A DNA stretch of 44,331 nt from a bacterium (GCA_046757025.1 JBHHXN010000024.1:1-44331); one strand, 5' to 3'; positions 19,424 through 37,817 are shown, counted from the first letter of the stretch. Numbers and translations: made by a program. The notes: generated from the letters alone by a model not told the origin.

Positions 19424-19504
19424 GGTTTCAAATAGGCAATGGCCATAGTTATGAAGTGAACATGACTTTTTTTAATTGTAGAAATTGCAGATTCGGTCGC
19501 TTTA

Positions 19505-19531
19505 TTATCGGCATTTACGCATATATGTTTA
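19505..19531 (-). promoter_or_regulatory. sigma28 (FliA-type) promoter of the kinase/regulator pair
   Basis: Minus strand TAAA-N15-GCCGATAA, an exact consensus match, about 80 nt upstream of the kinase start. Confidence 0.75.
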
Positions 19532-19545
19532 ATCATTTGAGAATT

Positions 19546-19728
19546 GTAACTGTTCAGCCAAAACTGTCATGCTGAGCGCAAACTCGCAAATGCTGAGCAT
19601 CTTACCGAAAGTATCTAAACGAAGTGTCTTGCAATCGGTTTGGAGATTCTTCGCATATCCGCGCCTGTGGAGATGAGTAAAAAATCCGGGGTTTGTGCTC
19701 AAAATGACAACCCCGGCTGAATAGTTAC
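19546..19728. mobile_element. MITE with 14-bp TIRs and a 3-bp target duplication
   Basis: ATT|GTAACTGTTCAGCC ... GGCTGAATAGTTAC|ATT; internal TGTCATGCTGAGC...GCTCAAAATGACA palindrome. Confidence 0.8.
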
Positions 19729-19909
19729 ATTGAATTCATGCTGGCATTAAAATTATCCGTACTGGATGACCTGCTGAAGGTCTTCATTTTTGACTGAGAC
19801 AAATTATTCGGATTGAGATGAATTTGGAACGGGGAAATGGATAATTTTAGGATGGTTACTGCAAATCAGAATGGATTGAAGTCATCTCGATTTGAGGAGT
19901 TGTTCGAAT

Positions 19910-19934
19910 TTGGCTGAAATCAACCAATTGGTTG
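19910..19934. promoter_or_regulatory. candidate upstream activator site for a sigma54 activator
   Basis: Perfect 14-bp palindrome CAACCAATTGGTTG (19921-19934) overlapping TTGG-N10-CCAA, about 150 bp upstream of the -24/-12 box. Confidence 0.45.
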
Positions 19935-20077
19935 TTTAAATCAAAAGCTGGCTTTTTTCAGCAATAGAACTTTATTAGAATTTCAAGAGGAAAATTAATA
20001 TTATTTAGGGCGTAAATAATTGAAAATAAATGAATACAAGTCACAGAAACAAACTTGAAAAACGAATTTAATTAAAC

Positions 20078-20092
20078 TGGCACCACCTTTGC
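20078..20092 (+). promoter_or_regulatory. sigma54 (-24/-12) promoter
   Basis: TGGCAC-CACCT-TTGC, an exact consensus match, preceded by an AT-rich tract and about 60 nt before the ATG at 20151. Confidence 0.8.
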
Positions 20093-20150
20093 CTGCAAAG
20101 GGATTGACTGGTAATTAACTGGGTTTTAAACATCATACAGGAGTACCGCC

Positions 20151-20750
20151 ATGAGAAAAGTCAGAAGCTTTTTCGTGCCATTTCTATTGCTGGCTTTGCT
20201 TTTATCTTTTGCCATCAGTCATTGGGGCTGTTCAGATCAATCACCATTGGCTCCGCAAAATTCTCTAGTGACGAATGCCGAAAAAATCCATTTCATTCCA
20301 TTGACCGATGGTTCGAGGGCATTGAGTAAAGGCCAGCACGATCAAAACAAAGCGTCCGCCTGGGTTACCGTGAAAGAGGGGGGCAAGCTGAAGCTGAAAT
20401 ATAAAAATGATGATGTCAAAGTCAAAGTAAAATTGCAAGTGCGGCCCAAAACCATCAATCGGGATGCGGAGCTGACGCTGGTTTTAAATCCGTTGATGTT
20501 GGACATGGAATTTGGACCGGCTGACATCATTTTTAGCTCGCCAGCGATGTTAAATATTGAGGCAAAAGGATTGGATTTGTCCAAAGCAGATCCGGATAAA
20601 ATCGACATTTATTATGTCAATCCACTCACGAACAAGTGGGAAAAAATAGCCCGAGAAAAAGTCAAAGTCGATATAAAGAAGGGAAGTATCAAAGTTGTCA
20701 ACGCAGAGATCGAGCATTTTTCTCGATACGCAGTAGGTTGGGGAGAGTAG
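20151..20750 (+). CDS. secreted lipoprotein with a ZU5-like beta domain and C-terminal HFS motif
   Basis: AGGAG RBS; signal peptide with HWGC lipobox; EGGKL...EFGPADIIFSSPAML...IYY...W...EIEHFSRYAVGWGE*. Confidence 0.75.
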   Translation: MRKVRSFFVPFLLLALLLSFAISHWGCSDQSPLAPQNSLVTNAEKIHFIPLTDGSRALSKGQHDQNKASAWVTVKEGGKLKLKYKNDDVKVKVKLQVRPKTINRDAELTLVLNPLMLDMEFGPADIIFSSPAMLNIEAKGLDLSKADPDKIDIYYVNPLTNKWEKIAREKVKVDIKKGSIKVVNAEIEHFSRYAVGWGE

Positions 20751-20853
20751 AAAGAAACTCAGAATTTGATGAGAAATCGGCTGTAAAGATATTTCAAAAG
20801 CACCATTTCGATGACATTTTTGAAGGGTAACTAATTGAATAATTTATTCTAAT

Positions 20854-20880
20854 TTAAATTGACGGCATTTGTACCGATAA
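20854..20880 (+). promoter_or_regulatory. weak sigma28-like promoter upstream of the TPR/kinase operon
   Basis: TTAA-N15-ACCGATAA (or TAAA-N14), an imperfect match. Confidence 0.3.
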
Positions 20881-21270
20881 AAATAGAAAGGAGAATTATA
20901 CTTTTATGATTTAATTCAGGGTTCAAAAAGAATTTGGTTAACCATTTGAGATGATCAAAATTGGGGGTAATTGGGAGATACGAGATATTTTGTACCAGAC
21001 GACAACGTAAATATGGAATCAGAAGTTAACCTCTAATCGATTGTGTACCAGGTATGACAGGCATGTTTAAATTTAGAAACGGTCTCAGGGATGAGCCCTC
21101 ATCCTTCCTTAACCGGCCAAAGAAAATCTCACTGCTCAAAGCCATTGATTTTAGCGAAGCGAAATTTCAAATAAATGAAAAGTTGCAAGCAAATTTCGAT
21201 TTTTTAATCGGATTTCATGCCTGCGGATCAAATTTATTTGTTTTACTGCATTAGTAAGAAGAGGAAGGTC

Positions 21271-22563
21271 ATGATTCAAAAGCGTCAAAAACAAACGCAA
21301 AATTATTTACAACGATTATCTGATTTTTTAGAACCCAAAGAATCCCCAAAACTACCATCGTACAATTCGTGGTTGTCTATCGTTGCAAACGCCGTTGAAA
21401 AGTTAATCGCAAAACAGAACTGTCAGTCGTTTAGCGAGCAACGAGACGATTCAAACGAATCTCTTTCAAAAGTAAGTTATTATATCGATTTAGCCTTGCA
21501 AACTTTTAAGAATATTCGGGAGCCGTTATTAGATGACAGCAACCAGGCGAACTTTTTATTTGCCTTAAGTGAAACGTATGAGTCTTTGGGTGATTACCCG
21601 TCGGCATTAAAAAACTATGCGACGGTTCTGGAATTGGCTGAGAAGGCAAAAGATCAATCCCTGCAAGGTAAGATAAAGTACCGAATGGCAAGTATCCTTT
21701 CAGAACTTGGTCACTGGCAGCGTGCGAAAGAATTGCTGCAAGAATCCATGCTTGCCCTGAAAACCATCGACAACTATCACGAAACCGCTTATGCTCAGAT
21801 TGAACTCGCAAAGATTTCTTACCGACGAGGTGAGTATCTTGCTGCCATGGAAGCTTTTAAGGCAGCCCGAACCATCAGCGATGCCATCGGTGAAACCCGC
21901 AGCCGGGCAATTATCAATAACCACTTGGGAATAATTTTACGAATGAAAGGCGAGTACGATTTAGCCTACCAGCACATTCAAGAATCACTGGTGGGATTTC
22001 AAAGCGTGCAAGATTACCGCGGAACGGCAGAATGTTTAAACAATCTCGGTGTGGTACATTTTAAACGCCAACAGCCTCAGATGGCCATCAGCTATTTTGA
22101 AAAGGCACATCAGCTATGTCAGGCTACAGGTCATTTTCCGCTGTTAGCCTTTGTTTATTTGAATAAAACGGAATATTACTGTCAGGCCACGGATTATCTC
22201 ATGGCTTTAAATGTGTGCTGTCGGGCACTGGAAAATTTCGTGCGGTTAAACAACCCCATTGGGCTGGCCAAAACCAATTTGCTTTTCGGGAGGATTTTCA
22301 AGCAGGCAGGGCAATTCGAGAGGGCTGAAAAATTTTACCAGGAGAGCCTCAAATTATATCAGGATTTTAAGATTCCACTGGGGCTGGCAAACGGCCATCG
22401 CGAATTCTCACAAATGCTAAAGGAGTGTGGTAAAAGTCAGGAGGCATTGATTCACGAATCGGAGGCCCAAAAAATACTGGCAAAACTGCACATGGAGAAA
22501 ACAGAAACGAAAAAAGCGGTGAATCGTGAGCCTGATTTAATTTCCAGGGTTGTGCCAGATTGA
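21271..22563 (+). CDS. cytoplasmic TPR protein (about 40-aa MalT/Rap-like repeats)
   Basis: GAGGAAGG RBS before the ATG at 21271; repeats such as AECLNNLGVVHFKRQQPQMAISYFEKA; no signal peptide. Confidence 0.85.
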   Translation: MIQKRQKQTQNYLQRLSDFLEPKESPKLPSYNSWLSIVANAVEKLIAKQNCQSFSEQRDDSNESLSKVSYYIDLALQTFKNIREPLLDDSNQANFLFALSETYESLGDYPSALKNYATVLELAEKAKDQSLQGKIKYRMASILSELGHWQRAKELLQESMLALKTIDNYHETAYAQIELAKISYRRGEYLAAMEAFKAARTISDAIGETRSRAIINNHLGIILRMKGEYDLAYQHIQESLVGFQSVQDYRGTAECLNNLGVVHFKRQQPQMAISYFEKAHQLCQATGHFPLLAFVYLNKTEYYCQATDYLMALNVCCRALENFVRLNNPIGLAKTNLLFGRIFKQAGQFERAEKFYQESLKLYQDFKIPLGLANGHREFSQMLKECGKSQEALIHESEAQKILAKLHMEKTETKKAVNREPDLISRVVPD

Positions 22564-22610
22564 AATGCGAGTTTTCTAATTGATTCAAACAATACTGAAA
22601 ACCATTTTTA

Positions 22611-25600
22611 ATGTCTGAGAAATTAAAAAAGATCAAACACTACAAACTGATCGAATTGATTGGCAGCGGTGGCATGGGGGAAGTTCACAAAGCCTTCGAT
22701 TCGATGTTAGAACGCGATGTAGCCATAAAAATCATGCATCGTCACTTGCTGGACGAAGAAAACATCGATGCCCGTTTTATGCGGGAAGCCCGGGCCGCTG
22801 CGAAATTGGTACATCCGAATATCGTTACCATCCACGAGGTGGGCAAGGCAGAATGCGGGCGCTTTATCGTCATGGAATACGTGAACGGTATGCCGCTGAC
22901 CAACTATCTCAAAAGTGAGGAAAATATTAAACCTGAGTTTGCCTTAAAACTGGTAATTCAGATTCTGAAAGGTTTGAGCTGTGCACATAACATGGGCATT
23001 TTTCATCGCGACATCAAACCCGACAACATCCTGGTTGCGGAAAGTGAAATCGCAAAAATATTGGATTTTGGCATCGCAAAAATAGCTGCGAAAGAGGGGT
23101 TGACCGCGGCCGGCGATATACTCGGCACGGTGGAATACATGGCTCCGGAACAGATGCTCGGCGAGGGATTGGACCATCGTTGTGATATTTATGCGACGGG
23201 TGTGGTGCTGTATCAATTTTTAACGAAAAGGATGCCTTTTGTAGGTGAGAATCCCGTGGCTATTCTTTATAAAATACTCAATGAAGATCCCATTCCGCCT
23301 TCCTACTATAACAGCGAAGTCGGTCAAGAGCTGGATCAGGTGGTGCTCAAAGCCATTCACAAAAGTAAAGACGAGCGCTGGGAATCGGCCGTCGCTTTGG
23401 CAGAAGCGCTGGAAGCCATCCTTCGCAGCGGGACTTATCCATCCGGTTTTGCGCAATCGGATGACTCAGAATCCCTGATGGATTTTGAGGCCGAGCTGAA
23501 GACCGAATTTCATACTAGTGCTGCAAACAAAATGAACAGCGTGTTTGTCGGGCGGGAAAATGAATTCAAGCGTCTGGTGAATTTATTTGGTCTGGCGGTG
23601 CGGAATCAGGGACAAACGGTGATTCTTGCCGGCGAAGCCGGCGTGGGCAAAAGTACGCTGGCCGTTCGTCTGCAAGAGTACGCCCGGAAAAATCAAGCCT
23701 GGGTGCTTTACGGCGCCTGTCTTTATCAGGAAGGTATGGACGCCTACCTGCCGTTCATCGATGCGTTGCGCGGATTTTTCAGCAAAGAGAGCCAATATCT
23801 TTCTGAAAAAGAACGCCTGAATTTGAAAAACATTCTGCGAGAGAAAGTGCCTTTGCTGCAGGAGTTTACCGAGCGCTTTCAGACCAGCTTTGGGCCGCCC
23901 ACATCTTCTGAAGGCCAGAATGAAAAGCGCAACATGTTTGAAAGTATCTATCAGCTCATTTCTTTGCTGTCTTCTTTGCGAACGGTGCTCTTGATAATCG
24001 ACGACATTCACTGGGCTGATGAAGCCAGTTTGCGGTTATTTCACTATCTGTCTCATCATGTGGTTCAAAATCGTGTGCTGTTGGTCGGCATCAGCCGCAT
24101 CGAAAGGTACGATTTGTTGAAAGATGGCAAACCCACCATGATCGTGGACATGCTGGCACGTATTCGACGCGAAAGCACCTGCGAACAGATCACCCTGTAC
24201 CGATTGAGCAAAAAGAACTGTGAAGCGCTCGTGGATAAATCCCTGGCCCCGGCGATGTTTACTGAAGAGTTTTATGAGCTGATTTACAACGAGACCAAAG
24301 GCAACCCCCTGTTCGTGCTGGAAACATTGAAATTGATGCGTGAAAACGGTACGGTTTTTTTTAATGCGGGCGCCTGGTACAATAAGCAGGAAGGATTTGA
24401 GCTCGCAGTTCCCAATCGGGTGGAGGATGTCTTTGTTCGACGCTTGAGCGCCCTGAATGAAGATGAGAGGGAAATCCTGCAAGTAGCGGCGGTGATCGGA
24501 TTCAAATTCGATATTTCTTTACTGGCAACCATTTTAGAAACAACCAAAATCAAGCTCTTGAAAAACCTACAGCGTGTGGAAAGAGAATTGCAAATTCTGA
24601 CCAGCACCGAACAGGGATATCAGTTTGAGCACCCCATGTTGCAAGATATGCTGTATAATGAAATTCCGAAAGCACTGGCCCAAGAGTACCATTTGATGAT
24701 CGCGGCGGAGATGGAAAAAATCCATAATGGAGAATATGGCGCTTTGGTGGGAGAGGTGGCTCAACATTTGCGACGGGGCGGCCAGCATGAAAAAGCCGCA
24801 CCGTTGTTATATGAGGCGGCCATGCGAGCTTTCAAGCTCGGAGCGTTTCGTGAAGCGGGCTTGTTTTTCACAGATTTCATGGACTCAGATGAACGCAGTG
24901 GCGGCAACCAGCAAAAATTCATCTCCAATGAAGAGCTGTATTTGAAACTTGGAAGGTGCCATGAGGAGGCCGGTCGTTGGGATGAAAGCATGGAGGCTTA
25001 TAAAATTCTACTCAAATTGAGCGAGAAACGGGAAGATCCAAAAGGACAAATAAATGCTCTGGAACGCATGGGAAGAATCCAGGCCAAACATGGCGACTAC
25101 GATGCCGCCCTTGAAACCTACACTAAATCTATTCAGCTTGCGAACCAGCACCAGATAAGTGGGATACTCAGTCGCCTTTACAACAGTGCAGGTATCATCC
25201 ATTTTGAAAAAAGCGATTTTAATCAAGCCATGGATTATTTTAAAAAAACTATTCAATTGTTGGATAGCGATGAAGGAGACGACCATAAAGCCCATGCTTT
25301 GATAAATATGGGAATCATCGCAAATATTCGGGCTGATTACAAAACGGCGTTAGAGAATTATGAAAAAGCGCTGGAGATTTTCGAAATGAAAATTGACCGT
25401 AAAAATCAAGCAAGGGTTTATCACAACATCGGAATGACCTATTCTGACACGGGTGACTGGAGCAAATCAATTCAAGCATTTGAGCGCTGTTTGGAGCTGA
25501 CCGATAAAGTCGAAGATAAACAACTACGTGGCCTGATTTATTTGAACATGGGCAAGGTTTACGCCTACCAGGAGAGCCTAACTAAAGCTCAGGAAAATGT

Positions 25601-25934
25601 TGAGAAGGCGTTAAAGATGTTCAAGTTAATGGGCGATATTTTAAATGTAGCCGAATCATATCATGCCTTTGGCATCATCCATAGTGCCAGAGGCAACTTC
25701 TCAGAGGCGGAGCTGTACCTGAAAGAAAGTTTCCAAATCAATGAAGAAAAAGAATACCATGAGGCGTTAGCAGAAACCTGCGTCACCTATGGCGATGTTT
25801 GTTATAAACACGGCGATTGTGCGCGTGCGAAAGAGTTTTGGAGCAAAGCGGTTAATTTATTTGATAGATTAAATTTGAAAACCAAAGTTGATAAAGTGGG
25901 GGTTAAATTAAAACAAATTGTTGACGAGGAGTGA
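22611..25934 (+). CDS. Ser/Thr protein kinase - STAND-type AAA ATPase - TPR protein
   Basis: GSGGMG, VAIK, HRDIKPDN, DFG, APE; FVGRENE, Walker A GEAGVGKS, Walker B LLIIDDIHWAD, GNPLF, FEHP; C-terminal TPR array. Confidence 0.92.
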   Translation: MSEKLKKIKHYKLIELIGSGGMGEVHKAFDSMLERDVAIKIMHRHLLDEENIDARFMREARAAAKLVHPNIVTIHEVGKAECGRFIVMEYVNGMPLTNYLKSEENIKPEFALKLVIQILKGLSCAHNMGIFHRDIKPDNILVAESEIAKILDFGIAKIAAKEGLTAAGDILGTVEYMAPEQMLGEGLDHRCDIYATGVVLYQFLTKRMPFVGENPVAILYKILNEDPIPPSYYNSEVGQELDQVVLKAIHKSKDERWESAVALAEALEAILRSGTYPSGFAQSDDSESLMDFEAELKTEFHTSAANKMNSVFVGRENEFKRLVNLFGLAVRNQGQTVILAGEAGVGKSTLAVRLQEYARKNQAWVLYGACLYQEGMDAYLPFIDALRGFFSKESQYLSEKERLNLKNILREKVPLLQEFTERFQTSFGPPTSSEGQNEKRNMFESIYQLISLLSSLRTVLLIIDDIHWADEASLRLFHYLSHHVVQNRVLLVGISRIERYDLLKDGKPTMIVDMLARIRRESTCEQITLYRLSKKNCEALVDKSLAPAMFTEEFYELIYNETKGNPLFVLETLKLMRENGTVFFNAGAWYNKQEGFELAVPNRVEDVFVRRLSALNEDEREILQVAAVIGFKFDISLLATILETTKIKLLKNLQRVERELQILTSTEQGYQFEHPMLQDMLYNEIPKALAQEYHLMIAAEMEKIHNGEYGALVGEVAQHLRRGGQHEKAAPLLYEAAMRAFKLGAFREAGLFFTDFMDSDERSGGNQQKFISNEELYLKLGRCHEEAGRWDESMEAYKILLKLSEKREDPKGQINALERMGRIQAKHGDYDAALETYTKSIQLANQHQISGILSRLYNSAGIIHFEKSDFNQAMDYFKKTIQLLDSDEGDDHKAHALINMGIIANIRADYKTALENYEKALEIFEMKIDRKNQARVYHNIGMTYSDTGDWSKSIQAFERCLELTDKVEDKQLRGLIYLNMGKVYAYQESLTKAQENVEKALKMFKLMGDILNVAESYHAFGIIHSARGNFSEAELYLKESFQINEEKEYHEALAETCVTYGDVCYKHGDCARAKEFWSKAVNLFDRLNLKTKVDKVGVKLKQIVDEE

Positions 25935-25966
25935 TCTTACTTTCATAAAATGTAAAGAGACGAATA

Positions 25967-26278
25967 ATGGAATCTCAATCGGAAAATCAGAACAAATGTC
26001 CCAGATGCTATAAGCAGTATGCGCTAGAAGATAAATTTTGCGGTTTTTGCGGATTTAATCTATCCGCGTTGCCAACGGCAGAAATGATCACACAGCGTGC
26101 CATGCGAGTGAGCGATATCCAGTTTAATCTGGGCATGGTGTATTTCAATATGGGGAAATATGAGCAAGCCCTGCAAAATTTTGAGAAGTGTATCGAAGAA
26201 AGCCCGGATAATTTGAGCTTTCGTGAAATGTATGAAAAAGCTAAACTTGCGTTGAAAGACAAGGTGAAAATTCCATAG
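25967..26278 (+). CDS. zinc-ribbon plus single TPR protein
   Basis: CPRC...FCGFCG followed by QFNLGMVYFNMGKYEQALQNFEKCIEESP. Confidence 0.8.
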   Translation: MESQSENQNKCPRCYKQYALEDKFCGFCGFNLSALPTAEMITQRAMRVSDIQFNLGMVYFNMGKYEQALQNFEKCIEESPDNLSFREMYEKAKLALKDKVKIP

Positions 26279-26307
26279 AATCAGCCACCCATTTGTAAGG
26301 AATCACT

Positions 26308-26700
26308 ATGGAAAGTAAAATATGTAGTTGCTGCAAACACACAAACACTTCAAACAATCATTTTTGCACGCAGTGCGGTTCGCGTCTTGACGACGACTAC
26401 GGTCATAGGCCCCGGCTGCGATTGCTCTACGGCGAACCCAAAGGTGCAGTGTTTGTGCTGGGGCAACGTCAAAACACCATCGGCCGGGACAGCGGAAATT
26501 TGATCGTGCTCGGAGATGAACAAGTTTCAAATAAACACGCTGCCATTACATTAGAGGACGAAAATTACTGGATAGAAGACTTCAATAGCAAAAACGGCAT
26601 TTTTGTCAACGGTAAAAAAGTGAGCAAACGCGAACAATTGATCAACCGCAGTCTGATCAAGATGGGAGCTACCATCATGCGGTTTGAAACCAGTTATTAA
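26308..26700 (+). CDS. zinc-ribbon plus FHA domain protein
   Basis: CSCC...FCTQCG; FHA motifs IGRD, VSNKHA and NSKNG. Confidence 0.88.
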   Translation: MESKICSCCKHTNTSNNHFCTQCGSRLDDDYGHRPRLRLLYGEPKGAVFVLGQRQNTIGRDSGNLIVLGDEQVSNKHAAITLEDENYWIEDFNSKNGIFVNGKKVSKREQLINRSLIKMGATIMRFETSY

Positions 26701-26730
26701 ATCATCACAATTAGTTGCAGCAGGAAGATT

Positions 26731-28365
26731 TTGTTGACACGTTTACTTTCAAAATGGTTGATGGCGTTTTTCGCCAGTTTAGTTTTAACAGGGAGTTTTG
26801 CCGGGTCATGGTCCGTCCGCGGCGCGGTGGTCTTTGCGGAGAAAAGCGAGCCGGCCGTCTACGGCGGTACACTGATAATAGGCATCACCAGCGACGTCGA
26901 TTCCTTCAATCCTCTGTTCGGGGAAACCGCTTTTTCGCAGGAAATAACCCATTTGCTGCTCCTGGGCCTGGCTGATCTCAACGAAAACTCAGAGTTTGTA
27001 CCAGAGCTGGCCACTCACTGGGAACGGTCACACGATTATCGAAAATTAACCTACTATCTTAGAAAAGATGCGGTCTGGTCCGACGGTGTGCCCATCACGG
27101 CTGAGGATGTGAAATTTACTTTCGACCTGCTGATGGACCGCACTGTTGCCAGCCCGAGACAGGGGGTGACCGATTTTATCAAACGCGTAGTCGTGAATGA
27201 CGCCCACAGCGTGACTTTTGAATTTAGCCAATCCTATCCCGATCAAATTTTTGATACCGCTGGCGAAATTCTACCGCGGCACCTTCTGGAACAGGTTCCC
27301 CGGGCTCGTTTGAGAAACCATCGTTTTGGGAGAAATCCACTTTCTTCCGGACCCTTTTTGTTGAAAAAATGGCTGCCACAGCAGTACATCGAATTAATCC
27401 CAAATCCTATGTATTTTGCTGGACGCCCTTACTTAGACCGGGTCATTTTTAAAATTGTGCCGGATGTCAGCAATTTGTTGATTCAAATGCAAACCGGGGA
27501 AATCGATATGATGATCGGCGTACCGCCCGGCGAAGTTGACCGCTTGCTTAAAAAGAATCCACAAGTGAAGATCTATCCGGTTTCCGGACGGATTTACTAT
27601 TACATCGGCTACAATTTGCAGAATCCGTTATTTGCCAGTGTTGCTGTCAGACGGGCGCTCACCTTGGCCATCGATCGACAGGGCATCATAGATGCGTTGT
27701 TGTTTGGATATGGTCGGGTTTGTGTGGGACCGGTACCGCCTATCTTGCAGTGGGCGGTGAATGATGAGATCAAAGAAATCCCATTTGATCCTGAGCAAGC
27801 GCAAAAACTTTTAGCTGCAGAGGGCTGGCTTGATCGCGACAAAGATGGCTGGCTCGATAAGCAGGGACAGCCATTCAAATTTATTTTGAAAACCAACACC
27901 GGCAATCAGCTCAGATCGGATATCGCTGTTATCGTGCAAGACCGTCTCAAGAAAATCGGCATTGCGGTTGAAATTGAAACCATTGAACGGGCGGCGCTAA
28001 TCAAAGCGCTGCGTTCAAAAAATTTTGAGGCGTTTATGGGCGGCTGGAGTACCTCCCTCAACCTGGATCCCACGCCGATTTTCCACTCTGCCTCAACGGA
28101 ACAATTTAATTTTGGCAATTACTCCAATCCCGAAGTGGACCAACTCATTGAACAGGGTCGCATGGAAGTGGAGCGCACACAGGCGATAAAAACCTGGCAA
28201 AAATTCCAGCAGATTATTTATCAGGAACAGCCTTATACTTTTCTTTTCTGGAAGGATCGCCTCATTGCCGTGAACGCACAGTTCAAAAATGTGAATCCCA
28301 TTCCATTGAGCGCGCTGTACGAGCTGGAGAAATGGTACCGTTCCGGTCATGAGTTGACGAATTAG
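26731..28365 (+). CDS. oppA: peptide/nickel ABC transporter substrate-binding protein (family 5)
   Basis: Signal peptide; PELATHW, WSDGVPITAEDVKFTF, GPFLLKKW and VRRALTLAIDR motifs. Confidence 0.9.
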   Translation: MLTRLLSKWLMAFFASLVLTGSFAGSWSVRGAVVFAEKSEPAVYGGTLIIGITSDVDSFNPLFGETAFSQEITHLLLLGLADLNENSEFVPELATHWERSHDYRKLTYYLRKDAVWSDGVPITAEDVKFTFDLLMDRTVASPRQGVTDFIKRVVVNDAHSVTFEFSQSYPDQIFDTAGEILPRHLLEQVPRARLRNHRFGRNPLSSGPFLLKKWLPQQYIELIPNPMYFAGRPYLDRVIFKIVPDVSNLLIQMQTGEIDMMIGVPPGEVDRLLKKNPQVKIYPVSGRIYYYIGYNLQNPLFASVAVRRALTLAIDRQGIIDALLFGYGRVCVGPVPPILQWAVNDEIKEIPFDPEQAQKLLAAEGWLDRDKDGWLDKQGQPFKFILKTNTGNQLRSDIAVIVQDRLKKIGIAVEIETIERAALIKALRSKNFEAFMGGWSTSLNLDPTPIFHSASTEQFNFGNYSNPEVDQLIEQGRMEVERTQAIKTWQKFQQIIYQEQPYTFLFWKDRLIAVNAQFKNVNPIPLSALYELEKWYRSGHELTN

Positions 28366-28438
28366 TTCATCACATGTCAACCAAAAGTTAGCGCGATTCG
28401 CCGCTGCTGTTCCTGGCAGACCGCCGACGTGCATTAGT

Positions 28439-29269
28439 TTGATGACGCCTTCAACCCCTCTCTGCCAGCCAATTTTATTAAATGTAAAAAATCTAACCAT
28501 AAAAATTGCGGGTGGAAACCATTTAGTGGTTCAGAACCTTTCGTTTCAAATCAGTCCTGGTGAAACCCTGGCTTTGGTGGGTGAGTCGGGTTCGGGGAAG
28601 ACCTTGACCGCTCTTGCTTTGTTGGGTTTGTTGCCGCCGCACATTCACCTGGTCGGCGGGCAGGTGGAATTTTTGCAGAAGCGTGTGACCCTCAGCGGCG
28701 AAGTTGCGTTTGCTCATTTGCGCGGCAAGCACATCGCTATGATCTTTCAAGAGCCGCACGCCGCCCTCAATCCCGTTTTCAGAGTGGGCACACAGATCCG
28801 GGATGTTGTGCAAACACATCTTGGGTTGCGCAAAAAGGCGGCTAAAAATTACACCGCGGAATTGCTGTCGCAGGTGGGATTTGCAGAGCCGCACGCCATC
28901 GCCAAAAAATATCCCCATGAGCTCAGCGGCGGTATGGCGCAGCGCATTCTCATCGCCATTGCTTTGAGCTGCAATCCGCAGCTTATCATTGCCGACGAAC
29001 CCACCACTGCGCTGGATGCAACCTCGCAATTACACATTCTGAAGCTCATCGAAAACTTGCAAATCGCACACCGTTTTGCGCTTCTGCTGATCAGCCATGA
29101 TATCGGGCTGGTGGAAAAATTGGCTGACACGGTGGTGGTTTTGAAAAACGGCAAGGCTGTGGAGTACAGTTCAGCAGAACAGCTGTTTCATAGTCCAACG
29201 CACGAATATACGCGGGAATTGATCAATGCCTGCTGCCGGCGAGCGGCATCAAAGGTAAAGGTGATTTGA
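28439..29269 (+). CDS. oppD: oligopeptide ABC transporter ATPase
   Basis: GESGSGKT, YPHELSGGMAQR, DEPTTALD, HEYTREL. Confidence 0.9.
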   Translation: MMTPSTPLCQPILLNVKNLTIKIAGGNHLVVQNLSFQISPGETLALVGESGSGKTLTALALLGLLPPHIHLVGGQVEFLQKRVTLSGEVAFAHLRGKHIAMIFQEPHAALNPVFRVGTQIRDVVQTHLGLRKKAAKNYTAELLSQVGFAEPHAIAKKYPHELSGGMAQRILIAIALSCNPQLIIADEPTTALDATSQLHILKLIENLQIAHRFALLLISHDIGLVEKLADTVVVLKNGKAVEYSSAEQLFHSPTHEYTRELINACCRRAASKVKVI

Positions 29270-30309
29270 GCATGCCGTCGCCAGAAATAATTCTTAAAGT
29301 AGAAAATTTAACCAGAACTTTTAACAGAGTGCAACCGTTCGGGCAGAAAAGATGTCCGCGGCCGGCACTCAATAAAATCAATTTGAATGTTTACAAAAAT
29401 GAGTGTCTGGCTGTGGTGGGCGAATCCGGCAGCGGAAAAACCACCCTGGGCAAATGTCTCATTCGATTGCAGAAAGCTGAATCGGGCAGAGTCCTGCACC
29501 AAGGGGTGGATCTCTTGCAAATGAACGAGAAAGCATTTCGACGATTTCGGCGGCGGTTTCAGATGATTCATCAGAATTACACACAAGCTTTGAATCCAAG
29601 ACAAACGGTGGGAGCGTGTTTGCGCGAGTCGCTGAAAGTGCATGGATGTGTTTCGAAAACAGCTCTTCGCCTCCGCACACAGGAACTGCTACAGCTGGTG
29701 GGATTAAACACGGAACATCTTTCGCGCTTTCCACATGAGCTGAGCGGCGGTCAGCGCCAGCGTGTGGCCATAGCCCGCGCCCTCACCACTTCTCCCAAAT
29801 TTTTAATAGCCGACGAACCGACTTCCAGTTTGGATGATTTGATTCAGCGTCAAATTGTTCAGTTATTGCATGACCTGCGCAAGCGGTTAGGCCTCACCGT
29901 TTTGCTCATTTCACACGACCTGACGCTGGTTGCTGAAATCGCCGACCGGATCGCCGTGATGTATGGCGGCGCCATTATAGAGCTGGCATCGGCGGAAAAA
30001 ATACTGCGGTCGCCCATGCATCCTTACACGAAATTGTTGATACAATGCATGGGCTATCAAGTGGATGACGCAGATGTTCTCCACCTGGAGCAAGAGACTG
30101 GAATCCAAGAGCGGGAGTCTGATCAAGCTGCATGCGTTTATGCACACTGCTGCCCGCGGGCATTCGAATACTGCTTTCAAAGGCCACCTGCTTTACAACG
30201 GGTTTCGGAAGAACACTGGGTTGCCTGTCACGTTGCGGTATTGCCTCGGTCTCCGTTGGTGGCGGACCAAACAACGGTAGCAAATATTGAACATCAAGTG
30301 AAACATTAA
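29266..30309 (+). CDS. oppF: oligopeptide ABC transporter ATPase with a Cys-rich C-terminal domain
   Basis: GESGSGKT, ELSGGQRQR, DEPTSSLD, HPYT, CVYAHCCP...C...VACH. Confidence 0.9.
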   Translation: MSMPSPEIILKVENLTRTFNRVQPFGQKRCPRPALNKINLNVYKNECLAVVGESGSGKTTLGKCLIRLQKAESGRVLHQGVDLLQMNEKAFRRFRRRFQMIHQNYTQALNPRQTVGACLRESLKVHGCVSKTALRLRTQELLQLVGLNTEHLSRFPHELSGGQRQRVAIARALTTSPKFLIADEPTSSLDDLIQRQIVQLLHDLRKRLGLTVLLISHDLTLVAEIADRIAVMYGGAIIELASAEKILRSPMHPYTKLLIQCMGYQVDDADVLHLEQETGIQERESDQAACVYAHCCPRAFEYCFQRPPALQRVSEEHWVACHVAVLPRSPLVADQTTVANIEHQVKH

Positions 30310-30315
30310 CGAACC

Positions 30316-31287
30316 TTGAAAATCCTGACTTATCTTTTGCGACGATTTCTGGTGTCTGCGACGCTGGTTTGGGGTGTACTCAGCCTGACTTTTTTACTCA
30401 TTCACCTCACAGGCGACCCTACCGCGATTTATCTGAATCCGCAGATGGATGAAAAAACCCTTGCGGCGATTCGGCGTCAAATGGGTTTCGACCTCTCTCT
30501 GTGGCAGCAGTATTTCGTCTGGTTGCGCGGATTTATAACCGGCCATTTTGGATTTTCGTTTGTACAAATGCGACCCGTAAGCGATATTTTCGCCGAAGCC
30601 CTGCTGAACACCTTTCAGCTAACCGTAGTGGTTTTTGGTGTGCAGTTGTTTGGCGGAGTGTTGCTCGGAGTCTGCACGGGCATTAAACGCCGATCGAAAT
30701 TGGATGTGATGGTCAATTCGTTTTTACTTTTTATCTATTCTATGCCGGGATTTTGGCTGGCGTTGATCGCCATCATGATCTTCTCGCTCAAATTGCGCTG
30801 GCTGCCTTCGAGCCAGATGCAATCTATCGTAGGGGTAGAGGGATTTTGGCCGCAGTTAGCGGATCGAATCAAACATTTAATTCTTCCCGTGTTGGTTCTG
30901 GCGATGCCGTTTCTGGCTTACACTACGCGTTTTGTTCGTGCTGGTATTTCAGAGGTGCTGGCTCAAGATTACATTCGAACCGCCCTGGCGTTCGGTATTC
31001 GGCGCCGCAAAATCTGGTTCAAATACGCCCTGAAAAATGCCTTGCTGCCGCTGGTCACGATAGGCGGTTTGTATTTGCCTTTTTTACTGGGTGGCGCTGT
31101 GATAACGGAATACATTTTTGCCTGGCCAGGAATGGGCAGTTTAGCCATCAACGCCATTTATGCGCATGATTTTCCGGTCGTTCTGGCCAGTACGTTCATC
31201 GCCGCGTTATCGGTGATTGCTGGAAATTTTTTGGCCGATTTGCTCTATTTTCTGGCGGATCCCCGCATTAAAAAACCAGCGGTTTGA
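30316..31287 (+). CDS. oppB: oligopeptide ABC transporter permease
   Basis: YLLRRFL, GDP, HLILP, DYIRTALAFG, LKNALLP, FAWPGMG, DPRI. Confidence 0.9.
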   Translation: MKILTYLLRRFLVSATLVWGVLSLTFLLIHLTGDPTAIYLNPQMDEKTLAAIRRQMGFDLSLWQQYFVWLRGFITGHFGFSFVQMRPVSDIFAEALLNTFQLTVVVFGVQLFGGVLLGVCTGIKRRSKLDVMVNSFLLFIYSMPGFWLALIAIMIFSLKLRWLPSSQMQSIVGVEGFWPQLADRIKHLILPVLVLAMPFLAYTTRFVRAGISEVLAQDYIRTALAFGIRRRKIWFKYALKNALLPLVTIGGLYLPFLLGGAVITEYIFAWPGMGSLAINAIYAHDFPVVLASTFIAALSVIAGNFLADLLYFLADPRIKKPAV

Positions 31288-32165
31288 GGGTTTTGGTGAA
31301 CATGTCTGAAAAAGTTAAAACATCGTTTGGATTTCATCGTCACTTCTGGCCGCGGTTTTTTCAGCAAACCTCTGTGAAAGCGGGATTGCTTTTGATCCTG
31401 GTCGTAACCGCCGGCTGTGCTTTTAGCAATGTGTTGACGATTTATCCGCCAAACCAGCAGGGCGATCTTCTGACATCACGCTATTTACCCCCCAGCAGCG
31501 AACACCCATTTGGCACCGACAAATTCGCTCGCGACGTGTTCAGCCGGGTTTTGTATGGCGGACGGATTTCTTTGATCATCGCCTTCAGCGTCGTGGCGCT
31601 ATCCATTTCTCTGGGCGTGCTCTATGGCACGGTTTCGGGTTATGCCGGCGGCTTCGTCGATGTTCTGATGATGCGGGTTCTGGATTTTTTATTGGCCTTT
31701 CCCGCTATTTATTTGGTTCTGACGGTGGTGACGGTGTGCCACGCCAATCACTGGTATTTGATTCCGGTTCTGGGCTTGACCGGCTGGATGGAAACCGCAC
31801 GGATGGTTCGTGCGGAGGTCATTTCCATAAAAGAAAGAGATTTTGTTTTGGCTGCGAAAGGCCTCGGTTTCAGTCATTTTCGAATTTTGTTTTTTCACAT
31901 CGTTCCCAACTGTTTGAATCCCGTTATCGTGACGGCCACCTTCAAAGTTGGCGAGGTCATTCTACTGGAATCGGCGTTGAGCTTTCTGGGATTGGGTGTG
32001 CAGCCGCCCACGCCGAGCTGGGGCAGCATCATCAACGACGGTCGGCAAGCGTTGTTAAATGCCTGGTGGGTTTCAACTTTTCCAGGAATGTTTATTGTGC
32101 TGGTGGTCATCGGCTTCAATTTAATCGGGGAAGGTTTGCGCGTTTGTTTAAATCCCCGAGAATAA
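31284..32165 (+). CDS. oppC: oligopeptide ABC transporter permease
   Basis: HPFGTDKFARDVFSRVLYGGRISL, LSFLGLGVQPPTPSWG. Confidence 0.9.
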   Translation: MRVLVNMSEKVKTSFGFHRHFWPRFFQQTSVKAGLLLILVVTAGCAFSNVLTIYPPNQQGDLLTSRYLPPSSEHPFGTDKFARDVFSRVLYGGRISLIIAFSVVALSISLGVLYGTVSGYAGGFVDVLMMRVLDFLLAFPAIYLVLTVVTVCHANHWYLIPVLGLTGWMETARMVRAEVISIKERDFVLAAKGLGFSHFRILFFHIVPNCLNPVIVTATFKVGEVILLESALSFLGLGVQPPTPSWGSIINDGRQALLNAWWVSTFPGMFIVLVVIGFNLIGEGLRVCLNPRE

Positions 32166-32195
32166 AAGTCGCAGTCGGTTGGGGGTGGCCTCTGT

Positions 32196-32222
32196 TAAAG
32201 CAAAAAGGGTGACGGTCGATAC
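32196..32222 (+). promoter_or_regulatory. sigma28-like promoter facing the sigma54 activator gene
   Basis: TAAA-N15-GTCGATAC (6/8 match to GCCGATAA, correct spacing). Confidence 0.4.
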
Positions 32223-32301
32223 ATTATTAAAATGAAGGACCCGTTGAAAAAATAGCCTTTCCCGAACTTGTCTCGGGACTCAGGCTGAAGGTTTCTTTGA
32301 T

Positions 32302-32385
32302 TTTAACGTAGAGGCCGCGGAGAGCGCAGAGCGTCTCGCAGAGTGAGATATTTTTCTCTGCGTCCTAGGCGGCCTCTGCGTTAAA
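32302..32385. repeat. long palindromic REP-like element
   Basis: TTTAACGTAGAGGCCGC...GCGCAGAG ... CTCTGCG...GCGGCCTCTGCGTTAAA. Confidence 0.7.
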
Positions 32386-32409
32386 GAGAAAGGTTAGAAT
32401 AAGTAAAGA

Positions 32410-32564
32410 GTGTCTGAGCGAAAACGACCCGATCTTTCCGAAGGCCTGCTGGACGAGGGTGAATGTCTGCCTCGCTCGGCGGGGCCTGTCCTGAGCTTTG
32501 TCGAAGGGATTCCTTTGCGAAGTGGTTTTTAATTCGCGCATTTCGCGAGTTTTCGGACAGATAC
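32410..32564. mobile_element. MITE-like element
   Basis: Imperfect TIRs GTGTCTGAGCGAAAAC / GTTTTCGGACAGATAC (13/16); contains CCTGAGCTTTGTCGAAGG, related to the core at about 43876-43892. Confidence 0.55.
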
Positions 32565-32740
32565 GAAATAACCACTCAATCACTCTAATTTTGCAATAGT
32601 AAGGAAATCTCTTTCTTATGAATTGTTAAAATACGAATTCATCAGCAGGGCCTTATTTGATTTTGTTTAAATTATCTGACTGCGAGACTTGAGTTATTAA
32701 TTAAATCATTTGCGCTGGAGCCAATTTACTTTCATGTTGT

Positions 32741-33820
32741 TTGACGTTTTTCAAAATGATGCCTGCTGTGAAAACGCCCGGTGAATTTCAGGAACAAATC
32801 ATAGGTCAATCCGCAGTGATCAAGCGGCTGTTGGCCACGGTTGCAAAAATTGCCGGCAGCGCTTCCATTACTACCCTGATCGTTGGTGAAAGCGGCACTG
32901 GCAAAGAGATGGTGGCCCGTCGAATCCACGAATTAAATGCTACCCCTGAGCAGCCGTTTGTGGATATCAATTGCGGTGCGATACCGGAGACGCTACTCGA
33001 GTCGGAGTTGTTTGGCTATGAAAAGGGCGCGTTTACCGGCGCGGAAACCAGCAAGAAAGGCCTGTTTGAGCTGGCCAATGGCGGCACCATTTTTCTCGAT
33101 GAAATTGACAACACTAGCCTGAATTTTCAAACGAAATTGTTGAAGGCCGTGGAGTACAAGCGATTTCGGCGCATCAACGGGTTGGCGGAAATTCAGGTGT
33201 CCACGCGCATCATTGCCGCCACCAATATCGATTTAATGGAGGCCATCAGGGCTGGTCGTTTTCGCGAGGATCTTTACTATCGTTTAAACGTGTGTCAGAT
33301 TTACGTGCCCCCGCTGCGCAGTCGCGGCGATGACGTACTGATCCTGGCGCAATATTTTATCGAGCGCTTTAATCGCGAGTACGAGCGCGAAGTAAAAGGC
33401 CTGGCCCCGTCTGCGGTGAAAGTCATGAAATCCTACGCCTGGCCCGGAAACATCCGCCAGTTAAAAAATGCCATCGAGCGTGCCGTGCTGGTGGAATGCG
33501 ATGAATGGATCGAAGCCGAGCATCTGATGCTGGACCCGGATGGGCAGAGCAAAAATCTTTGGCCGGAATGCGACCAAACCGCCCCACCGGTAACGGTGGT
33601 CAATTCGGATTTCAAACTGTTTGAAATTCCAGCAGAAGGGATTTCTCTTGAAAAAGTGGAAAGGGATTTAATCCTGAGCGCGCTGGCCAGAACCAATGGC
33701 AACGTGAGTCGGGCCGCGCGCCTCTTGCAAATCAACCGCGGCAAATTGCGCTACCGCATGGAGCGGCTGGGCATCACATCTCAGAATATTCATGAGTTGA
33801 AAGCTAAATCTTTTAGCTGA
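32741..33820 (+). CDS. sigma54-dependent transcriptional activator (AAA+ and Fis HTH) lacking an N-terminal regulatory domain
   Basis: GESGTGKE, LESELFGYEKGAFTGA, FLDEI, FREDLYYRL, WPGNIRQL, GNVSRAARLL; the AAA+ domain starts within about 20 residues of the N-terminus; exact start uncertain. Confidence 0.92.
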   Translation: MTFFKMMPAVKTPGEFQEQIIGQSAVIKRLLATVAKIAGSASITTLIVGESGTGKEMVARRIHELNATPEQPFVDINCGAIPETLLESELFGYEKGAFTGAETSKKGLFELANGGTIFLDEIDNTSLNFQTKLLKAVEYKRFRRINGLAEIQVSTRIIAATNIDLMEAIRAGRFREDLYYRLNVCQIYVPPLRSRGDDVLILAQYFIERFNREYEREVKGLAPSAVKVMKSYAWPGNIRQLKNAIERAVLVECDEWIEAEHLMLDPDGQSKNLWPECDQTAPPVTVVNSDFKLFEIPAEGISLEKVERDLILSALARTNGNVSRAARLLQINRGKLRYRMERLGITSQNIHELKAKSFS

Positions 33821-33886
33821 AAAAGATTGATAGCAGAATTGTTGAATTGAACGATTCTTTAGGATGGCTGGTGGTTTTTTTGAAAT

Positions 33887-35335
33887 TCAGGAATTATCTG
33901 CAGTGACAAGGGTTTCCGCATTTGACCACTTGTCAATCGTGGCGATAAGTTGCTTTTTTTTCAGTGGCTTGCACATATAATCATCCATTCCGTGTAGTTG
34001 ACACTTTTCGCGGATTTCCGGTTTGTTATGGGCTGTAAGCGCAATTATCGGAGTACGCCCATACCCGGATTCTTTTTCAATTTTTCTAATTTCTTGAGCG
34101 GCTTGAAAACCGTTCATCACTGGCATTTCCATATCCATAAAAATTAGAGAGGGCAATTTATTTTTGAACTGGCTCACTGCTTGCTGGCCATTTTCAGCAA
34201 AAATCAAATTATACCCTCCATGTTTCTTAATAAACAATTCGATCAAATTCCGGTTGCAAGCGGAATCGTCCACGACAAGGAGCATGGGTTTCTGGCGCAA
34301 CCATTTTGTGAGAAATTGATTGAAATCCATTTTTTCATCGCGAATGATCACAAAATCATCCAGGTTGTGGTTCCGGCATTTTTCTCGAATGCCAGGCATG
34401 TCTTGATACGCATAGGCGATAATTTGCACATGATGCTCATGAGTTTCGCTCTCAATTTTTCTGATTTCTTTCACAACCTGAAAGCTGTCAAAAGCGGAGC
34501 TAAGCACATTCATCAAAATCAAATGGTAATTGAATTTTTTCACTGCTTCCAGCACCAGTGACTTGGTGTCAGCGATTACGCAGGTATGACCAGCGCCTTC
34601 TAAAATATTTTTCATAAAATTCTGTTTGTCGCGATGGTCTTCAACTAGTAAAATTGTGGGGTGACGAGTTTGCAGAGTTTGGTTGGTGTTCCTTTCTTCT
34701 TTGTCCTGTTCAGAATTTTCAGCGATTACATTTGAGCACGAGATGTTTTGAATCTTCACTTCGAGCTGTTTATTGAGATTTTCAAGTTCCAAGTTTCTTT
34801 TTTGGAGTGTTTGATTTTGCTGAATTACACTGTCAAAGGTTGAAAACAACAAATCCAGGATTTGGTGCTTTTCCGACTCGATGACATGATCTTCCCCAGC
34901 GTAATGAAAGAGTACCCCGCTCGACGAAGTACCGGTTTTTCGTAATCGGCGGGTGTTAAAAATATTCTCAATACGGGTTATGAGGTTTGCTGCGTCAAAG
35001 GGTTTCATAACGATATGATCCACCGCGCTTGCCAGACCTTTAAAAAGATCTGCCGTGTGTAACAAACTGGTTAACAACATAACCGGCGTGTCATGTAGTT
35101 CAGGGATGCGCTTGCTTGCCTTGCATAAGTCGTAACCGTTCATATCCGGTAAAATTAAGCTGCTGATGATCAAATTTGGGACATTGGTTTTTAACAACTC
35201 AAGCGCCTCTTTACCGTTGTGTGCCAAGTCACATTGGAAATGACGCTGAATTAAAATCCTTTTCAAAAACAATGCTTGTGTTGAACTGTTTTCTACAATT
35301 AGAATATCCATTTTCTGTTTGTTAAAAACGCTCAT
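33887..35335 (-). CDS. protein with three receiver domains
   Basis: REC1 (IVENSS...IISSLILPDMNG), coiled coil, REC2 (LVEDH...ILMNV) and canonical REC3 (VVDDS...FMDMEMPVMNG...CKP). Confidence 0.85.
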   Translation of the reverse strand: MSVFNKQKMDILIVENSSTQALFLKRILIQRHFQCDLAHNGKEALELLKTNVPNLIISSLILPDMNGYDLCKASKRIPELHDTPVMLLTSLLHTADLFKGLASAVDHIVMKPFDAANLITRIENIFNTRRLRKTGTSSSGVLFHYAGEDHVIESEKHQILDLLFSTFDSVIQQNQTLQKRNLELENLNKQLEVKIQNISCSNVIAENSEQDKEERNTNQTLQTRHPTILLVEDHRDKQNFMKNILEGAGHTCVIADTKSLVLEAVKKFNYHLILMNVLSSAFDSFQVVKEIRKIESETHEHHVQIIAYAYQDMPGIREKCRNHNLDDFVIIRDEKMDFNQFLTKWLRQKPMLLVVDDSACNRNLIELFIKKHGGYNLIFAENGQQAVSQFKNKLPSLIFMDMEMPVMNGFQAAQEIRKIEKESGYGRTPIIALTAHNKPEIREKCQLHGMDDYMCKPLKKKQLIATIDKWSNAETLVTADNS

Positions 35336-35469
35336 TTTGATACTTGTCTTAGTTAGTGTGATGACCCGTAGGTTGATTTTTCATTCTTAATAATTGCCTT
35401 GGTTGCTCCCATAGGAAGTCATCATGCCAAAACGCTTGTTCTGGAGATTTTATTGGCGAATCTTTATTT

Positions 35470-36333: not shown

Positions 36334-36347
36334 CGTACTGTAATCTT

Positions 36348-36713: not shown

Positions 36714-36716
36714 CTT

Positions 36717-37796: not shown

Positions 37797-37817
37797 ACTT
37801 ACCTGCTCTTTTGAACA

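Follow-up and report, generated by a model that had tools for sequence, protein, structure and literature searches.

Between positions 19,910 and 33,820 of GCA_046757025.1 JBHHXN010000024.1:1-44331, a bacterial stretch of 44,331 nucleotides (nt) called the window below, we analyzed a cassette of eleven genes that encodes a lipoprotein, TPR and STAND proteins, an Opp importer, and a sigma54 activator. On balance, we favor a circuit in which the lipoprotein releases its own C-terminal tail by self-cleavage, the tail is imported by Opp, and TPR/STAND proteins read it and control the activator. From the counts of parts in related loci and the neighborhoods of OppA homologues, we consider the lipoprotein, TPR, Opp, and activator genes to be the core of the cassette and the kinase and FHA genes to be accessory. 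A preliminary description of this DNA had also proposed a peptide circuit; its importer has proved to be dedicated to the cassette, but it did not say where the peptide comes from and took the lipoprotein, the probable precursor, to be the output.

Composition and inheritance of the cassette

All eleven open reading frames (ORFs) lie on the plus strand at the positions first assigned to them. From the TPR gene to oppC they form the tight block already described, with intergenic gaps of 47, 32, 29, 30, 73, -4, 6, and -4 nt; 520 nt separate the lipoprotein gene from the TPR gene, and 575 nt separate oppC from the activator gene. Pfam searches assigned TPRs to the 430-amino-acid (aa) protein, a kinase, an AAA_16 STAND ATPase, and TPRs to the 1107-aa protein, and a zinc ribbon followed by a TPR or an FHA domain to the two small proteins. 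The importer comprises an SBP_bac_5 protein, two ATP-binding cassette (ABC) ATPases, and two permeases, and the last gene encodes Sigma54_activat, its lid, and HTH_8. Sequence from the gap between oppC and the activator gene gave 179 blastn matches across the genome, and at three related loci this gap is only 67, 81, and 300 nt. No Rfam family matched within 19400-34000, sigma70 promoters and terminators in the window occurred at chance level, and the window contained no evident output gene besides the lipoprotein gene. The source genome (G000) comprises 5.96 Mb and is 94.8% complete, and homologues carry the labels Calditrichaeota and Gemmatimonadales.

The cassette belongs to a subtype, type B, with the order lipoprotein(s), STAND-TPR, TPR, kinase-STAND-TPR, zinc-ribbon-TPR, FHA, oppA, oppD, oppF, oppB, oppC, and short activator. 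When 12 candidates were scored per genome, full-length kinase-STAND-TPR orthologues were found at seven places in 6 of 60 relatives; in a seventh relative, part of the gene lies at the end of a contig. All eleven genes recur in the same order in genomes G018, G005, G052, G027, and G148, and partial or reduced type B copies are present in G004, G012, G016, G019, G020, and G146. The block is syntenic and inherited as a unit, so the independent assortment of Opp and activator genes that the preliminary description named as grounds for giving up its circuit did not occur. The window lacks the kinase-less STAND-TPR gene of ∼800 aa that is present in nine related loci, and no remnant or second copy of it was found in the 94.8% complete genome. 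Departures from the type B arrangement include those in G004 and G012: in G004 the cassette is split, with oppA and a second kinase copy on one contig and a main cluster without oppA on another (L023, G004:C11; L026, G004:C93), and in G012 (L069, G012:C20) it appears to be decaying, with fragmentary opp genes and no kinase gene.

A second cassette of the source genome represents type A (L030, G000:C105 679-17983). It consists of a sigma54 site, oppB, oppC, oppD, oppA, and an activator with a receiver-like domain, followed by a further sigma54 site with GTAAC-N5-GTTAC palindromes, a lipoprotein gene with an 18-residue basic tail, and a TPR gene. No kinase-STAND-TPR or FHA gene was detected in its 18 kb contig, and this kinase- and FHA-less form is the commonest in the phylum. 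Three glycosyltransferase genes, two genes for kinase-like proteins, and an ABC exporter lie 3' of the type A TPR gene.

Across the phylum, the lipoprotein profile matched 74 of 167 genomes at 144 places, a figure that overcounts cassettes, since weaker matches include large proteins with an internal copy of the domain. In the phylum of locus L001 (a Bacteroidota record whose relatives carry the Atlas label Ignavibacteriota), it matched 26 of 301 sampled genomes at 44 places. We fetched 60 lipoprotein stretches (40 and 20 from the two phyla), a nonrandom set made up mostly of stronger short-ORF matches on longer contigs. These contained Opp genes in 37 cases, a TPR gene in 36, an activator gene in 29, a kinase-STAND-TPR gene in 16, and an FHA gene in 3; at least one other part was present in 47 and at least two in 42. 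Ignavibacteria-type loci keep the parts together in a reshuffled order, with tandem lipoprotein-TPR pairs, and a single locus from one metagenome scan (L107) has overlapping genes for the lipoprotein and a TPR-HD-domain protein. Genes near the cassettes of relatives include glycosyltransferase clusters and genes for DUF5916 proteins, HD domains, and GAF histidine kinases. An HD-domain or lone receiver gene adjoins the lipoprotein or STAND-TPR gene in L027 (17960-18781), L028 (2065-2913), L078 (14608), L069 (9073), and L022 (441-869); this neighbor of type B loci is absent from the window.

Promoter control and predicted self-cleavage of the lipoprotein

The sigma54 promoter previously placed at the start of the block is the only exact match to TGGCAC-N5-TTGC in the window; one-mismatch matches were at chance level (5 found versus 3.2 expected). 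The genome contains 71 exact sites. Among lipoprotein genes that are first in their array, an exact site lay upstream of 22 of 66, versus 8 of 669 control ORFs, and a site with at most one mismatch lay upstream of 37 of 66, versus 25 of 669 controls. Because sigma54 sites are conserved and enriched upstream of lipoprotein homologues in this way, we take the promoter in the window to be real. Contig C61 encodes an RpoN-box protein.

Type-specific palindromes lie 5' of the lipoprotein sigma54 sites. The type B motif was found in 11/11 type B lipoprotein promoters and 0/13 type A promoters, and the type A motif in 11/13 type A and 1/11 type B promoters, where 4 of the 11 type B promoters were typed by tail alone and the consensus was derived from the same promoters. 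Random windows gave backgrounds of 49/5000 for type B, at up to three mismatches, and 238/5000 for type A. Of the 552 candidate sigma54 sites in the genome, the one in the window has the best type B palindrome, at 19910-19927, and what may be a second, weaker copy was noted by eye near 19948-19965. Outside the promoters used to derive the motif, the type A palindrome also occurred in five of eight sigma54 promoters 3' of type A TPR genes. The recognition helices of the activators vary in step with palindrome type, with INRGK(L/F)RY present in the window activator and the eight other short activators listed.

The window activator retains an intact GAFTGA loop, an AAA+ domain, and a C-terminal Fis helix-turn-helix (HTH). 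Its frame of 371 codons from stop to stop leaves no space for a sensor domain, which agrees with its earlier classification as sensor-less. In quick trees, the nine short activators formed one clade (support, 100), and 34 of 38 locus-derived activators (including two duplicate pairs) separated from 43 other activators of the genome (support, 80); the four outside the group are bystanders by position or architecture. Truncation of the window activator by repeat elements was ruled out, as relatives with short gaps also have short activators. The receiver-like domains of type A activators, read by eye, lack the acidic pair and Lys of true receivers, so both subtypes are probably controlled in trans. 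Since palindrome type follows activator clade, and given the sigma54 enrichment, the sequences argue strongly that the activator drives the lipoprotein promoter in positive feedback, a very likely arrangement that the preliminary description had anticipated.

The lipoprotein has no family in Pfam, NCBIfam, or PADLOC, and its profile gave nothing meaningful against PDB sequences. Inspection by eye and an alignment identified a signal peptide with a conserved Cys, and Cys27 is kept in at least 90% of 105 aligned sequences. A structure model from these sequences (predicted local distance difference test score, 88) is a beta-sandwich whose last strand comprises residues 192 to 198. VIA matched it to the ZU5 domain of ankyrin-B (Z, 10.1; root mean square deviation, 3.1; 115 aligned) and to further ankyrin ZU5 domains (Z, 9.6 and 9.3), with CD97 GAIN (Z, 8.3) and UNC5b (Z, 8.2) in lower rows. 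The top Foldseek rows were likewise ZU5, at an E value of 1.3e-3, with none at E ≤ 0.001, and Atlas neighbors include a cluster with ZU5 on 50% of its members. The Pfam ZU5 model did not match the lipoprotein, and a genome-wide scan with it was silent, controls included.

In the model, H189-F190-S191 sits in the loop between strands 179-187 and 192-198. A homologue search without a word index returned 8585 proteins at E ≤ 0.001; most homologues are of 170 to 240 aa. HFS was present near the C terminus in 149 of the 150 best homologues, with the caveat that the search profile itself includes the motif and so favors such matches at the top, and 147 of these 149 proteins stop 7 to 11 residues past the cut. 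(An earlier word-indexed search gave 119/120 HFS and 1 HLS, but carries index bias and is not relied on.) Within the loci, only Ser or Thr occupied the nucleophile position. Seven tandem-domain proteins are informative: H-F-S/T was found in none of eight internal domain copies, where the strand pattern is still present, but HFSRY was kept in six of seven terminal copies (three further two-part proteins, unreadable at the motif position, were excluded). This confinement to terminal copies suggests selection for the motif at positions from which a cut would release a short peptide, and with the lipid anchor at the N terminus, the tail is all that a cut could set free. PIDD1 and MAIN domains provide the analogy by which the lipoprotein is strongly predicted to cleave itself at Phe190|Ser191. 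The Arg at tail position 2 is reminiscent of Phr pentapeptides.

Some lipoproteins are elaborated or multiplied. Among 24 members scanned, Tachylectin, DUF6923, and Sad1_UNC scored above cut-off in some, as lectin-like or propeller inserts. Nine members (P0169, P0172, P0177, P0187, P0203, P0235, P0250, P0258, and P0264) carry a propeller-like (DUF6923, Tachylectin) or galactose-binding-like domain inside the ZU5-like domain and retain the terminal HFSRY tail; such inserts may make tail release depend on adhesion or on the binding of a ligand. In L078 (15955-19596), L088, L090, L095, and L096, four or five lipoprotein genes whose tails differ slightly stand in tandem, and lipoprotein and TPR genes alternate in pairs in L001 (7911-14795) and L108. 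The 13462 small ORFs of the loci gave 10 pattern matches and the 48509 of the whole genome gave 26, none of them a convincing separate peptide gene with a similar tail.

Importer, candidate receptors, and competing explanations

The Opp importer is a dedicated, cassette-associated lineage. Among close OppA homologues, 33 of 46 had a lipoprotein gene within 20 kb (31 by profile match and 2 more on inspection of the fetched stretch), and 9 of the other 13 lay on a short contig or near a contig end with other cassette parts still present. In contrast, none of four distant OppA controls had any cassette part. The window OppA scored below the cut-off of every named NCBIfam OppA, DppA, or NikA model.

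The 430-aa TPR protein (Pfam TPR_12; E, 4.9e-31) is the candidate receptor, and its gene directly follows the lipoprotein gene, at a distance of no more than 900 nt, in 31 of the 60 loci. Conserved residues include Asn258 (45 of 46), Glu254 (41), Asn298 (39), and Asp308 (41). Its fold neighbors are APPBP2 with a degron peptide (Z, 30.4) and MalT domain III (29.8), with phage Rap with peptide at 25.6, NprR at 23.3, and the range for Rap, NprR, and AimR at 21 to 26; by sequence, LGN/Pins and kinesin light chain come first among natural proteins of solved structure, and RapF ranks far lower. For the modeled protein, these matches show a ligand-binding superhelix, not membership in the Rap family. 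The TPR part of the kinase-STAND-TPR protein is 24% identical to the 430-aa protein. FastTree trees of TPR (51 rows) and OppA (39 rows) proteins gave groups that match by tail type. Four tail groups were distinguished: type B with small, acidic, or aromatic ends, type A with basic tails, a Thr-nucleophile group, and an Ignavibacteria type, S-x-Y/F-G-F/W. Genomes G000, G032, and G055 each carry two cassettes of different tail type.

The preliminary description had relayed the signal from kinase to FHA protein to activator. As an obligatory, general scheme, this relay is not supported: FHA genes and the kinase-STAND-TPR gene are present in a minority of loci, and the type A cassette of the same genome has neither. 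We also weighed the relay as the core of the system, in which a ligand would oligomerize the STAND kinase, the FHA protein would read phosphothreonine, and the sensor-less activator would be turned on. The kinase-STAND-TPR protein retains VAIK, HRD, DFG, Walker A, and Walker B, with kinase and Walker motifs likewise intact in type B copies, and most type B loci combine an activator of the sensor-less clade with genes for the kinase and the FHA protein, between which lies the zinc-ribbon-TPR gene. However, Ignavibacteria-type loci have the kinase without FHA, locus L069 has a short activator and FHA without the kinase, and the phosphothreonine-binding Arg, part of an FHA GR motif that is intact in the window, is His in 5 of 10 copies. 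A core relay therefore seems rather unlikely to us; it would be limited to this subtype, where it is compatible with the peptide circuit.

A second alternative has the cassette respond to a different ligand brought into the cell (a nutrient or cell-wall peptide, sugar, or metal complex), with the lipoprotein as an output whose cleavage serves maturation or shedding and whose tail stays docked. MalT domain III, close to the TPR protein in fold, is a sugar sensor, the OppA matches include peptide, nickel, and glutathione binders (all below cut-off), lectin-like or propeller inserts in some lipoproteins would fit an adhesin, and MAIN fragments remain associated after cleavage. This alternative leaves unexplained why the catalytic motif is confined to the terminal domain, why the protein stops 7 to 11 residues past the cut, and why TPR and OppA clades track tail type, with two types in one genome; given the N-terminal lipid anchor, nothing but the tail could be shed. 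We rate it as rather improbable.

Since STAND-TPR proteins with an effector kinase resemble bacterial NLR-like defense proteins, we also considered an anti-phage or conflict system (Avs/NLR-like) directed at proteins of invaders, with the transporter and lipoprotein as coregulated passengers. PADLOC kinase models do match, but the best 25 of 37 matches cover the kinase domain only, with no Avs model among them; the conserved core does not depend on STAND proteins; and the outputs encoded nearby are glycosyltransferase clusters, GAF histidine kinases, and proteins with DUF5916 or HD domains. Such a role is very improbable. Finally, a chance juxtaposition of a housekeeping Opp operon and an unrelated activator with a kinase cluster could draw on the two long gaps that set the lipoprotein and activator genes off from the tight block, but has next to no standing given the synteny, the reverse test from OppA, the congruent trees, the palindrome-activator match, and a 575-nt gap that contains repeats and measures 67 to 300 nt in relatives.

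We therefore propose the following peptide circuit. The activator likely switches on the lipoprotein gene, and the product would be exported, be lipidated, and, in all likelihood, cut itself at His-Phe|Ser. We would guess that, once cut, the tail remains in place as the final beta-strand and comes free only when the domain is pulled, unfolded, or degraded. The tail would then enter through the adjacent Opp importer and bind cytoplasmic TPR or STAND-TPR proteins, which in turn would control the sigma54 activator; that the tail is both Opp cargo and TPR ligand appears probable. An added relay of kinase, zinc-ribbon-TPR, and FHA proteins might take part in type B, where it probably stands in for the receiver-like domain of the simpler subtype's activators. 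On this view, the circuit would amplify itself and serve as a readout of contact, crowding, or turnover of the envelope, and we give equal weight to a peptide that passes between cells and to one that reports only on the cell's own envelope. Only tentatively do we advance the full form, a "free Stachel" in which a GAIN-like lipoprotein makes a diffusible peptide by autoproteolysis, followed by Opp import, TPR/STAND receptors, and sigma54 autoinduction. If true, this would be cell-to-cell or contact-triggered peptide signaling with cassette-specific peptide types in KSB1/Calditrichota-type, Ignavibacteria, and Gemmatimonadota diderms. The glycosyltransferase clusters and HD-domain proteins linked to the cassette in relatives suggest that these widespread and mostly uncultured bacteria use it in decisions about their surface or biofilms. 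The window offers a direct test both of reimported peptide signaling of the kind described for Gram-positive Firmicutes and of whether the C-terminal fragment of a microbial GAIN domain ever signals, with a 199-aa protein, a synthesizable nine-residue peptide, candidate binders, and a promoter side by side.

Several observations weigh against this proposal. Of the 60 lipoprotein loci, 13 had no other part in the stretch fetched, and L130, L132, and L139 have Opp with a kinase or activator gene but no lipoprotein gene in the stretch. The grouping of the activators rests on a support of only 80 in a quick tree, and the best fold score of the lipoprotein is modestly above the Z of 7 to 8 usual for unmatched models. 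The catalytic His is lost in two terminal copies, in L105 and in the otherwise intact cassette of L142. Conservation of the tail is partly structural, since it forms an integral, hydrophobic beta-strand, and different phyla have SRY in common, which is unusual in a private signal. The TPR protein is nearer to MalT domain III than to Rap by fold, and nearer to LGN and kinesin light chain than to RapF by sequence. Shared descent could produce matching TPR and OppA trees, so that their congruence is no proof of coevolution. Lastly, the cleavage products of MAIN domains stay bound and were freed only by sodium dodecyl sulfate or heat, so a free peptide would need a trigger.

Table 1. Positions of cassette features in the window
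Feature	Position	Strand	Basis or remark
Upstream palindrome, predicted binding site of the cluster's own activator	19910..19927	none	168 nt 5' of the sigma54 site
Sigma54 (-24/-12) promoter	20078..20092	+	Exact match to consensus
Lipoprotein, 199 aa (Cys27), ZU5/GAIN-B-like beta-sandwich, predicted self-cleaving peptide precursor	20151..20750	+	Structure model
His189-Phe190-Ser191, predicted autoproteolysis site (Phe|Ser)	20715..20723	+	Motif conservation, loop position in model
Nine-residue C-terminal tail SRYAVGWGE, predicted released peptide	20721..20747	+	Last beta-strand of model
Cytoplasmic TPR protein, 430 aa, candidate peptide receptor	21271..22563	+	Pfam, fold search
Hanks Ser/Thr kinase-STAND ATPase-TPR protein, 1107 aa, putative accessory sensor/transducer	22611..25934	+	Pfam
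Zinc ribbon-single TPR protein, 103 aa	25967..26278	+	Pfam
Zinc ribbon-FHA protein, 130 aa	26308..26700	+	Pfam
OppA-like family-5 solute-binding protein, cassette-associated lineage	26731..28365	+	Pfam, homologue neighborhoods
ABC ATPases OppD (28439-29269) and OppF (29266-30309)	28439..30309	+	Pfam ABC_tran and oligo_HPY
Permeases OppB (30316-31287) and OppC (31284-32165)	30316..32165	+	Pfam BPD_transp_1
Repeated elements between oppC and activator genes, not among the conserved parts of the cassette	32295..32571	none	Genome-wide blastn
Sensor-less sigma54 activator, AAA+ and Fis HTH, likely ATG near 32758	32741..33820	+	Pfam

Elsewhere in the window, a minus-strand sulfur-handling cluster (12842-15658) contains DUF1641, DsrC/TusE-like, and DsrE-like genes and an FAD-dependent oxidoreductase that is apparently split over the overlapping frames 14981-15658 and 14427-15179, possibly by a frameshift. 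A minus-strand chemosensory operon (33887-43460) encodes CheA, a methyl-accepting chemotaxis protein with dCache, CheW, CheB, CheY, and CheR and ends in a gene for a 482-aa protein with three receiver domains, convergent with the activator gene. The window also carries a deoxyhypusine synthase-like gene (772-1863), a HAMP-GAF-SpoIIE phosphatase gene (4927-6885), and a hybrid histidine kinase gene with a receiver gene (17838-19423), divergent from the lipoprotein promoter; the deoxyhypusine synthase-like, phosphatase, and hybrid kinase genes do not lie beside the cassette in the relatives examined.

Comparison with known systems

No description of the cassette was found in the literature covered, which largely excludes subscription papers and wholly excludes preprint supplements. 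Within that coverage, the proposed origin of the signal, from a lipoprotein that is folded and cuts itself, has no counterpart among the systems found; novelty of kind hinges on the tail being the signal. The nearest counterpart in logic is RRNPP signaling (Rap-Phr, NprR-NprX, PlcR-PapR, and AimR-AimP), described for Gram-positive Firmicutes, in which reimported peptides are read by cytoplasmic TPR proteins. Its published criteria are a propeptide of 10 to 100 aa, Sec export and separate peptidases, a receptor of 250 to 500 aa with TPRs, and a gene spacing of -60 to 400 bp, and the mature peptide is the last 4 to 10 residues (PMC10075063). The cassette likewise combines an exported precursor whose last residues are the proposed signal, Opp import, an adjacent cytoplasmic TPR protein of fitting size (430 aa), tandem precursor-receptor pairs, and variant tails of 7 to 11 residues, a length that matches RRNPP peptides. 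It differs in that the precursor is a folded lipoprotein of 180 to 230 aa (199 aa in the window, beyond the propeptide range) with its own predicted cleavage chemistry rather than separate proteases. In addition, its hosts have two membranes, the cassette brings its own importer, a sigma54 activator, STAND kinases, or HD domains provide the output, and the TPR protein is no closer to Rap than to MalT, APPBP2, or LGN. The precursor and receptor genes are adjacent in the window, at a distance of 520 nt. The system would work like RRNPP despite its oversized precursor.

The cleavage chemistry has its closest bacterial parallel in MAIN domains. In Bacillus subtilis YfkN, the HF|S cut was located by Edman sequencing. 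Ser and Thr are interchangeable in MAIN domains, and the cleavage products stay associated until released by sodium dodecyl sulfate or heat. MAIN proteins average 158 kDa and are anchored at the C terminus, so that N-terminal cargo is released; no signaling is linked to the C-terminal fragment, a question the authors leave open, and the words lipoprotein, quorum, ZU5, oligopeptide, and TPR are absent from the main text (Brogan and Rudner, bioRxiv 10.64898/2026.05.12.724683). The lipoprotein shares with these domains a GAIN-B-like beta-sandwich, HFS in the loop before a beta-strand, and the exchange of Ser and Thr. However, its anchor is the N-terminal Cys, cargo is usually lacking, and the releasable piece is only the 7- to 11-residue tail; in place of the layout of cargo, MAIN, and C-terminal anchor, the window protein has no cargo and ends nine residues past the cut.

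Sensor-less sigma54 activators controlled in trans are familiar from PspF-PspA and HrpR/S-HrpV. Like them, the window activator consists of AAA+ and HTH only, and NCBIfam PspF models match it below cut-off; it differs in belonging to a cassette-specific lineage whose other members have a receiver-like domain.

Finally, the fold links the lipoprotein to animal proteins. PIDD1 cleaves at HF|S (PMC9162469), and ZU5, GPS/GAIN, and Nup98 form one autoproteolytic superfamily, whose bacterial ZU5 domains are known from RHS toxins and large surface proteins (PMC3482391). PIDD1, Nup98, and adhesion G-protein-coupled receptors resemble the lipoprotein in fold and in the His-Phe-Ser site, and the strand past the cut is again the proposed signaling element. 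In the adhesion receptors this strand stays fused to the receptor, whereas here a free peptide would have to cross the inner membrane; if the proposal is true, the cassette would be a prokaryotic counterpart of their tethered-agonist signaling.

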